Assembly: GCF_988243305.1 (NCBI RefSeq)
Contig: NZ_OZ547136.1
DNA: 64,000 nt
Direction: 5' to 3' (one strand)
Shown: positions 2,716 through 19,878 of the stretch, piece after piece
Layout of the letters: each line of letters begins with the position of its first letter
Position numbering within the stretch: position 1 is the stretch's first letter
The notes under the pieces: model-generated
Seen by the model: only the letters and a program-made list of their open reading frames with translations
What the model was told of the DNA's origin: nothing
Databases searched by the model: none
Program-made: the position numbers and the translations under genes

Positions 2716-3600
2716 CTACTGCGCCAACGCCGCCAGCAGTTTAACCATCGCGGGCGTCACCTGCTGTGTTTCATAAACAATATATAAATCTGCAGGGATG
2801 CGCTGTTTGAGCGGACGGAAAATGACACCTGGCCAGTTCATTTGTGCGTAGCTGTCCGCTATCAATGTGATACCAATGCCCATACTGACCATAGCGAGTA
2901 CCGTTTGCGGTTCATTAACTTCGCGAATAACAACCGGTGAAAATCCCACCTGCTGGCAAACTCGCTGCAAAAAATCCCAGTCAGTGTAAACGGGCGGCAT
3001 TGTAACGAAATACTCGTCACCTAGCGCTTCCAGCGGGACGGTGGAAAATGATGAGAGATGATGCTCTTCAGGCATCGCCACCAGAAACGCCGATTCATGC
3101 AACCGTAAGCTGGTAAAACCTGCCGGTGGTTCTGTCGCCATTCTCCAGATTCCGGCATCGAGTTCACGTCGTTCCAGCAGGGCCATTTGCATCGCGGGCA
3201 TCTTTTCGCGAAAAAGAACGTCAACGTTAGGATTTTCCCTGAGGAATCGCCGCATAACCGGGCGCATCCGTCCCCACATTGCCGTTCCCACAACCCCGAG
3301 TTCAATCCGCCCTGCTTCTCCCCGACCTATTTGTTCAACCCGAGCCAATACATTATTTGCATTCACCAGCAATCGACGCGATTCTTCCATCAAGATTTTG
3401 CCCGCATGTGTCAGTACGACGCTGCGCGAATGGCGAATAAAAAGCTGCGTGCCGAGTTGATTTTCCAGCTCTTTAATATGAATACTGAGCGGAGGCTGAG
3501 ACATATTTAAACGCGCTGCTGCGCGACCAAAATGCAACTCTTCCGCTACGGCAAGAAAATAACGGAGCAACTTAAGATCTGTTCTATATACGCGTTCCAT
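2716..3600 (-). CDS. xapR: LysR-type transcriptional activator of xanthosine utilisation
   Basis: ORF with N-terminal HTH (LLRYFLAVAEELHFGRAAARLNMSQPPLS); start placed at MERVYRT (294 aa); the six-frame ORF extends 5 codons further upstream to 3615. Confidence 0.92.
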   Translation of the reverse strand: MERVYRTDLKLLRYFLAVAEELHFGRAAARLNMSQPPLSIHIKELENQLGTQLFIRHSRSVVLTHAGKILMEESRRLLVNANNVLARVEQIGRGEAGRIELGVVGTAMWGRMRPVMRRFLRENPNVDVLFREKMPAMQMALLERRELDAGIWRMATEPPAGFTSLRLHESAFLVAMPEEHHLSSFSTVPLEALGDEYFVTMPPVYTDWDFLQRVCQQVGFSPVVIREVNEPQTVLAMVSMGIGITLIADSYAQMNWPGVIFRPLKQRIPADLYIVYETQQVTPAMVKLLAALAQ

Positions 3601-3851: not shown

Positions 3852-5108
3852 TTAATGTGTAACTGAACGATGCGTTATCTTTTCAGGGTCATGGTTATAT
3901 TTAAACCCAAAGAAAAATATCACTGCGAGGAAAAGAGCATACCCTGCAAACATCAGCCAAATGGTATGCCAGTCTTTTACGCCATCCACCGAAAAGTAAT
4001 CTACTGCCATGCCACTCAGAATCGAGCCAACCCATGCGCCGACACCATTTACCATGGTCATAAAGAGCCCCTGCGCGCTGGCACGAATGCTGGAATCAAC
4101 TTCCTGTTCGACAAATACCGAACCAGAAATATTGAAGAAATCGAATGCACAGCCATAAACAATCATCGACAGCAGCAGCAAAATAAATCCGGTTGTTGAC
4201 GGATCGCCATAGGCGAAGAAGCCAAAGCGCAGCGTCCACGCCACCATACTCATCAGCATGACGGTTTTAATACCGAAACGCTTCAAAAAGAACGGTATCG
4301 TCAGAATGAAACCGACTTCAGCCATCTGTGAAACTGACAGTAAAATGGACGGGTATTTCACCACGAAGCTATCAGCAAACTCAGGATTACGGGCGAAATC
4401 ATGCAGGAACGGGTTGCCAAAAACGTTGGTAATTTGCAGCACCGCGCCCAGCATCATGGCGAAGAGGAAAAAGATAGCCATGCGTGGATTTTTAAACAGC
4501 ACGAAGGCATCCAGACCCAGCTTGCTGGCAAGCGATGTAGTCGCTTTTTTCTCCGCAACCGGAATCTTCGGCAAAGTCAGCGCATAAGCCGACAGCAGCA
4601 ATGACGCACCGGACGCGATATACAGCTGCAGACTACTCAATTCCAGATGCAGCAGGCTTACTGCCCACATGGCGACAATGAACCCCACCGTACCAAAAAC
4701 GCGAATGGGCGGGAAAGCGGTCACCGGGTCAAGCCCTGCCTGGGCAAGACAGGAATAAGAGACGCTGTTCGATAACGCAATAGTCGGCATAAACGCCATC
4801 GCATTGACTAACATCACCCAAAACATCATATCCGGATCAGTTACGGATGCCGCATAAAAAAGTACGCCTGCACACACCAGGTGACACAGCATGTATGCAC
4901 GTTCTGCACGCAGCCATTTGTCTGCGATGATCCCCATTATACCAGGCATAATAATCGCGGCGATCCCTTTGGAACTGTAAACCATGCCAACATTAGCGCC
5001 GGTGAAATGAAGGGTATTAATCATGTAAGAACCGAGGGTAACCAGCCAGCTCCCCCAGATAAAATATTGCAAAAAGGACATTACCTTTAAGCGCAAAGCG
5101 ATGCTCAT
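3852..5108 (-). CDS. xapB: Xanthosine permease (MFS nucleoside:H+ symporter family)
   Basis: 418-aa polytopic membrane ORF upstream of xapR and downstream of xapA; recognised as XapB. Confidence 0.95.
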   Translation of the reverse strand: MSIALRLKVMSFLQYFIWGSWLVTLGSYMINTLHFTGANVGMVYSSKGIAAIIMPGIMGIIADKWLRAERAYMLCHLVCAGVLFYAASVTDPDMMFWVMLVNAMAFMPTIALSNSVSYSCLAQAGLDPVTAFPPIRVFGTVGFIVAMWAVSLLHLELSSLQLYIASGASLLLSAYALTLPKIPVAEKKATTSLASKLGLDAFVLFKNPRMAIFFLFAMMLGAVLQITNVFGNPFLHDFARNPEFADSFVVKYPSILLSVSQMAEVGFILTIPFFLKRFGIKTVMLMSMVAWTLRFGFFAYGDPSTTGFILLLLSMIVYGCAFDFFNISGSVFVEQEVDSSIRASAQGLFMTMVNGVGAWVGSILSGMAVDYFSVDGVKDWHTIWLMFAGYALFLAVIFFFGFKYNHDPEKITHRSVTH

Positions 5109-17506: not shown

Positions 17507-18358
17507 TTATGCTTCCGCCAGCGGCGGCAAAATCAATTCATCGCTCTCATGCTGCTGGGTGTAGCGCATCACTTCCAGTACGCGTAATCCCGCGCTATGT
17601 ACCGCGTCAGTTAATTCCTTACCTTTCAACAAGCCACTGATAAGCTGAGCACAAAACAGGTCGCCAGTCCCTTTCAGGTCAGTTTTAACCCGTGAATGGG
17701 AAATGACATTCACGCTGTCGGCACTGACCACCACCACCTGCATCTCCTGATTTTCTTCATTACCGGAGGCGCTGGTAATCACCACCCATTTTAATGTGTC
17801 TGAAAGCAGACTTTTTGCGGCAGCAATGGCACTGTCGAGATCGCGGCAATTTTTACCGGTCAGGATTTCCAGCTCAAAGATATTGGGGGTAATTCCCTGC
17901 GCTAGCGGCAGTAAATATTGTCGATACGCCTCGGGAAGGTCAGGTTTGACATAAATTCCGCTATCAATATCGCCAATCACCGGATCGACCATGATCAATA
18001 GGTCAGGATGGTCTTTGCGTAGTGCAGTCAGCCACTCGGCAAGGATTTTGATTTGCGATGCCGTTCCCATATAGCCCGTGGTTACAGCTCGAAGTTGGCG
18101 CAGCGCATCACGCTCCTGAAGCGCACGCAAATAGCCGCTAAACCATTCGTCCGGAATCGCACCACCGTAGAAAGTGTCATAATGCGGTGTATTGCTCAGC
18201 AATACCGTCGGCACGGCAAAGACATTCAGGCCGTTCTGTTTGATAGCAGGCACGGCAATGCTGTTGCCTACGCTGCCGTACACTACCTGCGACTGCACGG
18301 CGACGATATCCGCCTGCAATGCCCTGCTCTTATCGTTAAACAACAACAAACTACTCAT
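17507..18358 (-). CDS. pdxK: Pyridoxal/pyridoxine/pyridoxamine kinase
   Basis: 283-aa ribokinase-superfamily ORF; recognised as PdxK. Confidence 0.93.
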
Positions 18359-18399
18359 TTAATTTTTTCTCCTTGCCGATGATCCTCATCGTATTCCAG

Positions 18400-18831
<432 letters not shown>

Positions 18832-18833
18832 TC

Positions 18834-19745
18834 TTAAATCCCCGCCCCCTGGCTAAAGTGTTCTTCCCCAAACACGCCGGTGGAGAGGTAGCGATCGCCG
18901 CGATCGCAGATGATCGCCACAACCACCGCGCCGGGGTTAGCTTTTGCCACGCGCAGTGCTCCGGCAACCGCGCCGCCGGAGCTAACGCCACAGAATATTC
19001 CTTCCCGCACCGCCAGTTCACGCATGGTGTTTTCCGCATCGCTCTGATGAATATCCAGCACCTCATCCACCAGCGAAGCGTTGAAAATCCCCGGCAGATA
19101 TTCCGCAGGCCAGCGGCGAATGCCGGGAATGCTACTGCCCTCTTCCGGCTGCAGGCCAACAATGGTCACCGGTTTGGATTGTTCGCGCATAAAGCGTGAA
19201 ACGCCGGTGATAGTGCCGGTTGTTCCCATGCTGGAGACAAAATGGGTAATGCGCCCGCCGGTTTGCTGCCAGATTTCCGGCCCGGTGGTGGTGTAATGGG
19301 CGTAAGGGTTATCAGGATTATTGAACTGATCGAGCAGCTTTCCTTCGCCACGATTCGCCATCTCCAGCGCCAGATCGCGCGCACCTTCCATGCCCTGCTC
19401 TTTGGTGACAAGAATCAGTTCCGCACCATAAGCACGCATCGCCGCACGGCGTTCCTGGCTCATGTTGTCGGGCATCAGCAATTTCATGCGATAGCCTTTA
19501 AGCGCGGCAATCATTGCCAGCGCAATGCCGGTGTTACCACTGGTGGCTTCGATCAGCACGTCACCCGGTTTAATTTCCCCGCGCTTTTCCGCCTCGACGA
19601 TCATCGAAAGCGCCGCACGATCTTTCACCGAACCTGCCGGGTTATTGCCTTCCAGTTTTAACCACACTTCACTGCCGTTATCCGGCCCCATTCGCTGCAA
19701 CTTCACCAGAGGCGTATTGCCAATTGTTTGTTCTAATGTACTCAC
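18834..19745 (-). CDS. cysM: Cysteine synthase B (O-acetylserine sulfhydrylase B)
   Basis: 303 aa from GTG (VSTLEQTIGNTPLVKLQRM); PLP lysine motif GSVKDR; last gene of cysPUWAM. Confidence 0.95.
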   Translation of the reverse strand: MSTLEQTIGNTPLVKLQRMGPDNGSEVWLKLEGNNPAGSVKDRAALSMIVEAEKRGEIKPGDVLIEATSGNTGIALAMIAALKGYRMKLLMPDNMSQERRAAMRAYGAELILVTKEQGMEGARDLALEMANRGEGKLLDQFNNPDNPYAHYTTTGPEIWQQTGGRITHFVSSMGTTGTITGVSRFMREQSKPVTIVGLQPEEGSSIPGIRRWPAEYLPGIFNASLVDEVLDIHQSDAENTMRELAVREGIFCGVSSGGAVAGALRVAKANPGAVVVAIICDRGDRYLSTGVFGEEHFSQGAGI

Positions 19746-19767
19746 GATCTCTATCCATACGTGGTGT

Positions 19768-19805
19768 TGCCTGATGCGACGCTTGCGCGTCTTATCAGGC
19801 CTACA
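19768..19805. repeat. REP (palindromic unit) in the cysA-cysM spacer
   Basis: gcctgatgcgacgcttgcgcgtcttatcaggcctaca, classical REP-type palindrome; a second hairpin gcccgga...tccgggc follows at about 19829-19858. Confidence 0.7.
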
Positions 19806-19878
19806 GGTTACAAACCTTGCCATTAAAAAGCCCGGATCGCGGGAAGCGCCTCCGGGCGTTTAACATTCACTCAACCTA

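Follow-up and report, generated by a model that had tools for sequence, protein, structure and literature searches.

Background

Hot spots of horizontal gene transfer between conserved core genes are a general concept in the comparison of bacterial pangenomes. For the locus studied here the closest described system is that of Escherichia coli K-12, where yfeK has a sigma-E-dependent promoter and yfeKS is an operon of the sigma-E regulon (PMC3326320; PMC2685091; PMC11502571). A second point of reference is the termination of transcription between convergent genes: at E. coli convergent gene boundaries, stem-loops are reported to position RNA polymerase (RNAP) collisions for bidirectional termination (bioRxiv 10.1101/2022.10.23.513370). 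Here we describe the corresponding locus in a stretch of 64,000 nucleotides of contig NZ_OZ547136.1 (assembly GCF_988243305.1), hereafter called the window, in which yfeK is followed directly by cysM, and we compare it with K-12, with other E. coli genomes and with related genera.

Results

The yfeK/cysM junction in the window

In the window, yfeK and cysM, the last gene of cysPUWAM, are convergent and lie tail to tail. The features around their junction are listed with position, strand, description and basis:

18402..18429, plus strand: sigma-E-type promoter of yfeK, GAAACTT-N16-TCAAA (motif match, K-12 identity)
18463..18831, plus strand: yfeK coding sequence, 122 aa, DUF5329, ending in ...TDKTVPAQ-stop (ORF list, Pfam, PGAP annotation of strain C4)
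18796..18829, no strand assigned: palindromic stem-loop with the arms ATTGCGCAG (18796-18804) and CTGCGCAAT (18821-18829) (RNA fold)
18829-18831, plus strand: stop codon TAA of yfeK (sequence)
18832..18833, no strand assigned: spacer TC, 2 bp, empty site of the 0.96-kb yfeS+BIME cassette (sequence, K-12 alignment, junction comparison)
18834-18836, minus strand: TTA, complement of the cysM stop codon (sequence)
18834..19745, minus strand: cysM coding sequence, 303 aa, cysteine synthase B (ORF list, 912-bp cysM in the PGAP annotation of C4, tblastn)

YfeK matches DUF5329 (Pfam PF17263) with E=1.7e-31. The letters at the junction, ...GTG CCT GCG CAA TAA TC TTA AAT CCC..., are unambiguous, and 1.7 kb around it are 100% identical to E. 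coli strain C4, a cow isolate (NZ_CP010121.1), whose PGAP annotation likewise leaves 2 bp between yfeK and cysM, with no gene in this gap. The sequence, the list of open reading frames and the annotation of C4 thus all agree with the first-pass annotation of the window, which had placed the two convergent stop codons only 2 bp apart. C4 is the only one of 5427 matching records with at least 99% identity to positions 18000-19700 of the window, and the next best record reaches 97.5%; it seems that either the window strain belongs to a sparsely sampled lineage or 18000-19700 is an unusual recombinant allele.

The promoter motif GAAACTT-N16-TCAAA has its sole match in the 64-kb window upstream of yfeK (0.03 expected), and all 28 promoter bases are identical in K-12. 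As the promoter is kept and yfeS is absent, the unit in the window consists of yfeK alone and is directed into the 3' end of cysM.

At the other end of cysM, the longest open reading frame starts at an upstream ATG at 19823 (329 aa) and passes through the REP-containing intergenic region (19746-19823); this N-terminal extension of the annotated 303 aa is probably spurious. The REP-like element in this cysM-cysA intergenic region (19766-19801) matches Rfam naRNA4 below threshold, with 37.9 bits against a gathering threshold of 59.5; the element is also present in K-12 and BL21, and in Pseudocitrobacter faecalis it scores above threshold. At the yfeK/cysM junction, between 18400 and 19700, Rfam gives no match at all, to a REP or BIME or to any other family.

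The K-12 arrangement and the yfeS cassette

In MG1655 the order of genes is yfeK, yfeS (244 aa, with a WGR domain, PF05406), 188 bp of REP/BIME sequence and cysM, and the statement in the first-pass annotation that K-12 has a gene of roughly 244 codons between yfeK and cysM was correct. So was its suggestion that yfeS is absent from the window: pairwise alignment gives 959 bases that are extra in K-12 (yfeS and REP/BIME), and the distance between the yfeK and cysM stop codons is 2 bp in the window versus 955 bp in K-12. The Rfam families ES036 and naRNA4 (REP) match the K-12 cassette at 3151-3233 of the K-12 locus (L001).

Short repeats flanking yfeS, suggested at the same time as a feature to look for, are present: the cassette has the 8-bp sequence ATTAATCC on either side in K-12, in BL21 and in a Pseudocitrobacter genome, and in K-12 this sequence bounds the insert as a perfect direct repeat (L001 2334-2341 and 3286-3293). 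Exact 8-bp direct repeats are frequent in the AT-rich kilobase of the cassette (8 families per 1 kb), and ATTAATCC is informative only by its place at the two boundaries.

The empty allele reads GCGCAATAATC followed directly by TTAAAT and the occupied allele GCGGAAGGAAATTAATCC...GCTATTAATCC followed directly by TTAAAT; with these different junction letters, yfeK therefore ends in PAQ-stop in the window and in PAEGN-stop in K-12. The difference in the yfeK tail, and the absence of a simple-excision junction from every one of the 5426 genomes, speak against the clean indel that had initially been assumed. Nor does the empty site hold one intact copy of ATTAATCC; its letters are CAATAATC. Judging from these letters, the original event has been blurred by later changes, and the empty junction is unlike the product of a simple insertion or excision.

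The cassettes differ in the region following yfeS: those of the BL21 type (BL21-AI, L026 about 2270-2310, compared with L001 3106-3140) have 16 additional bases, which complete a 12-bp inverted repeat, ATTTGTCGGCAG...CTGCCGACAAAT, whose right arm is lost in K-12. This inverted repeat of BL21 is probably the original yfeS terminator hairpin.

Two alleles in E. coli

Of the 5426 complete E. coli genomes, 4035 (~74%) match a 126-bp junction-spanning probe contiguously and so have the contiguous yfeK-cysM junction, and 1381 (~25%) contain the 955-bp K-12 cassette at a coverage of at least 80%; these genomes are a biased sample of sequenced E. coli isolates and not a population sample. Only these two states were seen, and together they make up all 5416 genomes with any match (4035 + 1381). 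Named strains without yfeS include O157:H7, O111, O145:H28, SE15, ATCC 25922 and PMV-1, while yfeS is carried by K-12 derivatives and BL21; going by the strain names, we take the former to represent phylogroups B1, B2 and E and the latter the K-12 and B lineages.

The lack of yfeS is therefore not specific to the window strain, as had been supposed. For a strain-specific deletion, absence should be confined to a narrow lineage and the gene should be present in the outgroups; neither is the case in the E. coli genomes and outgroup lineages sampled. Rare variants of the empty site read TAATCC (strain FCI29) and GCGGAA (strain Z1323CEC0013). In O157:H7, yfeK is annotated as a frameshifted pseudogene (L029, PV15-279, positions 1-359 of the locus), and over this region the O157:H7 sequence falls short of that of the window by 1 bp.

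The boundary in other lineages

Scanning the GTDB species representatives for YfeK returned 22 loci, which were annotated by tblastn and whose junctions were read. Six lineages have adjacent yfeK and cysM genes without yfeS:

A very divergent 'E. coli' (L003): same 2-bp junction, no yfeS
Escherichia sp. E1V33 (L004): 3' ends overlap by 12 nt, no yfeS
Pseudocitrobacter faecalis (L007): same junction type as the window, no yfeS
Enterobacteriaceae UBA5654: 1-bp gap, no yfeS
Superficieibacter sp.: gap of ~30 bp, no yfeS
Citrobacter amalonaticus: gap of ~30 bp, no yfeS

The tail-to-tail overlap of E1V33 (L004 1405-1428) is formed by a yfeK that ends in ...TVPSNP-stop, with TGA as stop codon, and by a cysM that likewise ends in TGA; relative to E. 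coli, a 9-bp deletion took out the right arm of the hairpin described below. E. coli, E. albertii, Pseudocitrobacter, Superficieibacter and Citrobacter share the gene order pdxK-yfeK ... cysM-cysA. Three further species carry unrelated cargo between the two genes:

Escherichia albertii NBRC 107761 (L005 4376-6194): 1.84 kb, GC 34%, two ORFs on the minus strand (280 and 175 aa)
Citrobacter sedlakii (L011 4431-8142): 3.8 kb, two large ORFs (628 and 654 aa)
Superficieibacter electus (L013 4473-4895): one DUF4440/SnoaL-like gene of 140 aa

The 175-aa ORF of E. albertii has an N-terminal hydrophobic stretch and a weak, sub-threshold match to DKNYY. In C. sedlakii, the 628-aa ORF has a signal-peptide-like N-terminus and the 654-aa ORF has weak TPR matches; the two are apparently paralogous. 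A scan with the PADLOC defence models, which covered YfeS, YfeK, the 280- and 175-aa ORFs of E. albertii and, from C. sedlakii, the first ORF (628 aa), gave no match. The cargo gene of S. electus has a TAA stop codon that overlaps the complement of the cysM stop within TTAA. A possible homology between this species and the K-12 sequence 3' of yfeK, which have the 10-mer TTTGGGAAGG in common, was rejected as not significant, with 23 of 500 shuffles scoring equally. In Escherichia sp. MOD1-EC7003 (L018 4001-4171) the contig breaks off at codon 37 of yfeK, which may point to a repeat or an IS there.

The flanks are conserved and syntenic, the content between them is variable, and the insert has an atypical GC content and a patchy taxonomic distribution. 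On these sequence comparisons, the yfeK/cysM boundary presents itself as a general insertion hot spot in Enterobacteriaceae.

Stem-loop and transcript ends at the compact junction

The first-pass annotation had noted that no terminator separates the two genes. This holds for canonical intrinsic terminators, as a consensus scan detected none at the junction; it does not hold for structure in general, as there is a stable stem-loop within the last 11 codons of yfeK, which on the cysM-sense RNA begins a few nucleotides 3' of the cysM stop. It folds with -16.3 kcal/mol on the minus strand (z=-4.2, 0 of 200 shuffles as good) and with -14.0 kcal/mol on the plus strand (z=-2.9). The stem is built from two copies of the self-complementary TGCGCA in Ala-Gln codons; in the K-12 allele, which reads GCGGAA, it is weakened (z=-0.36). 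A U tract follows the stem-loop on neither strand, hence it is not a canonical intrinsic terminator. The RNA 3' of the yfeK stop contains 36-37% C versus 24-28% G, and this moderate C-richness is weakly compatible with Rho loading.

In the yfeS-free allele, both transcripts would probably end without a canonical terminator. Candidate ends would be set by Rho, which would act on the RNA left untranslated beyond the two stop codons, by a collision of polymerases at the stem-loop at the end of yfeK, or by both. Convergent read-through across the junction, which had been expected from the tail-to-tail arrangement, is plausible on the sequence.

The 2-bp junction could itself be functional: the stem-loop would terminate the convergent cysPUWAM and sigma-E-driven yfeK transcripts in both directions or be the place where their polymerases collide, and the C of GCGCAA would be under selection in yfeS-free alleles, where it completes the stem. 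The hairpin is significantly stable on both strands, cysM-sense (z=-4.2) and yfeK-sense (z=-2.9), and begins only a few nucleotides past the cysM stop; stem-loops have been reported to position RNAP collisions at convergent boundaries in E. coli (bioRxiv 10.1101/2022.10.23.513370). Furthermore, the stem has no mismatch in the empty alleles that were sampled from E. coli phylogroups and P. faecalis; in the occupied ones it is mismatched, and a strongly structured BIME (z about -4.2 to -4.7) is present instead. However, there is no U tract on either side, on the yfeK mRNA the stem lies within the translated region, and it arises trivially from the two TGCGCA copies in Ala-Gln codons; it is weakened in the divergent 'E. 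coli' L003 (CCGCGCAA), has lost its right arm in E1V33 and is absent from other genera. Palindromy within codons may explain the boundary hairpin, and a selected function of the junction is, in our view, a tentative idea that is rather unlikely to be right.

Origin and spread of yfeS

With 39%, the GC content of yfeS is low in comparison with 46% for yfeK, 52% for pdxK and 56% for cysM. The best YfeS homologue outside E. coli and Pseudocitrobacter is 65% identical and the remainder ~58% and lower; the named distant homologues belong to Paenibacillus, Dysgonomonas, Lysinibacillus and Clostridium (Firmicutes, Bacteroidota). The surroundings of two distant homologues were searched for donor context and mobility genes; these neighbourhoods are unrelated and uninformative. 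The low GC content, the distant homologues and the yfeS-free outgroups together favour an insertion in K-12 over a deletion here. The gene had been called missing from the window, which implies a loss; outgroups, base composition and homologue distribution instead favour a gain in the K-12-type allele. As an explanation of the whole locus we consider it highly probable that the window, from strain C4 or one nearly identical to it, carries the common yfeS-free allele, which is the majority allele and most likely the ancestral one, and that the K-12 type is a horizontally acquired insertion.

On this explanation, a low-GC cassette of 0.96 kb (yfeS plus REP/BIME) would have inserted between the stop codons of yfeK and cysM and given rise to the K-12-type allele, in which the sigma-E promoter of yfeK would also drive yfeS. 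The cassette would then have moved by homologous recombination through the yfeK and cysM flanks, both among E. coli lineages and to or from Pseudocitrobacter, and now and then it would have been lost again or disrupted by IS1. K-12, BL21 and a Pseudocitrobacter metagenome-assembled genome (MAG; L006) have homologous copies of the cassette with its BIME, of both junctions and of the ATTAATCC repeat, and therefore all copies go back to one event. In pdxK and the 5' part of yfeK, K-12 and BL21 share 100% identity; from the 3' part of yfeK across yfeS into the 3' part of cysM their identity is 92-98%, and this divergent stretch is an imported recombination tract. When K-12 is compared with the Pseudocitrobacter MAG, the identity is 94-99% for yfeS and ~89-90% for the flanks, a pattern that indicates a recent transfer of yfeS between genera. 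Strain Z1323CEC0013 has no yfeS and is K-12-identical at every variable site for ~280 bp on each side, which indicates a secondary loss of yfeS, most simply by recombination with an empty allele. IS1 insertions affecting yfeS occurred independently in two strains, truncating the gene in one and splitting it in the other:

Strain E1739 (L025), 4359-5056: IS1 insertion affecting yfeS
Strain LR-03 (L027), 1801-2498: IS1 insertion affecting yfeS

The disruption of yfeS by IS1 in some strains implies that the gene is dispensable.

Could yfeS be ancestral instead, with most E. coli, including the window strain, descending from a deletion of the cassette, for example between the ATTAATCC repeats, followed by small changes? 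The flanking direct repeats could mediate such a deletion, and secondary loss does occur, as in Z1323CEC0013. Both E. coli and Pseudocitrobacter also have occupied and empty alleles, each with its own yfeK tail, and the empty-site variants TAATCC of FCI29 and GCGGAA of Z1323CEC0013 resemble the flanks of the occupied allele. However, the junction predicted by simple excision between the ATTAATCC repeats is absent from all 5426 genomes searched, the full-length matches being ordinary empty junctions of 89.5-90.8% identity. In divergent Escherichia lineages and in several genera the two genes are adjacent without yfeS, and yfeS has 39% GC and otherwise only distant relatives, the named ones from Firmicutes and Bacteroidota. 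Finally, yfeS is closer between the genera than its flanks are, as after a recent transfer and not an ancient residence. A deletion as the origin of the window allele is therefore improbable.

The horizontally acquired insertion itself could have been the work of a mobile element. Like an IS- or MITE-like transposable element with a target-site duplication, the cassette has ATTAATCC exactly at both ends, and this is kept in three diverged copies. Unlike such an element, it has no transposase (yfeS, with its WGR domain, is the sole ORF) and no terminal inverted repeats that would join its two ends, and the empty site reads CAATAATC, not ATTAATCC. The repeat may be a microhomology from illegitimate recombination. 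That yfeS and the BIME form a discrete mobile cassette without transposase, with an 8-bp target duplication (ATTAATCC) at abutting convergent stop codons and mobilised in trans, for instance by a REP-associated or IS transposase, is very improbable; if true, it would account for the identical junctions in two genera.

That yfeS is missing through an error in the assembly or annotation of this genome is practically refuted: nothing was found in its favour, and the same contiguous junction exists in 4035 independently assembled complete genomes, with unambiguous sequence.

Discussion

What the locus shows is ordinary: a small accessory gene, present in some genomes and absent from others, at a hot spot flanked by core genes. 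This presence/absence polymorphism is already visible in the RefSeq annotation of thousands of genomes. Only two points are mildly unusual: the boundary hairpin and the identical cassette junctions in two genera, which recombination explains. No unusual biology has emerged at the junction.

For the yfeK-cysM locus, K-12 is not the reference state: in place of the sigma-E 'yfeKS operon' described there, about three quarters of sequenced E. coli have a unit with yfeK as its only gene. Boric-acid sensitivity has been attributed to yfeS from the Keio mutant (PMC11502571); this and other phenotypes ascribed to yfeS are therefore those of an accessory gene. How convergent units end without any intergenic space could be studied in the compact allele, as a natural test case.

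Among the known systems, the K-12 yfeKS operon (b2419-b2420) is the same locus, with the same yfeK, an identical sigma-E-type promoter and the same pdxK and cysM flanks; the window differs in that yfeS and the REP/BIME (959 bp) are absent and in that yfeK ends in ...PAQ-stop and not in ...PAEGN-stop. With the bidirectional terminators described by Wang, Watters, Ju and Liu (bioRxiv 10.1101/2022.10.23.513370) the junction shares a convergent gene pair and a boundary stem-loop that can fold from either strand; however, the yfeK stem-loop lies inside a coding sequence and has no flanking U/A tracts.

As at hot spots of horizontal gene transfer, yfeK and cysM are conserved while the slot between them is empty, filled with yfeS or filled with unrelated low-GC cargo, and the alleles of the locus are exchanged by homologous recombination of the flanks. 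The yfeK/cysM boundary differs from such hot spots in its small scale: it takes up one or two genes and lacks an integrase, a tRNA and any mobility gene, and within E. coli it is seen in only two states.
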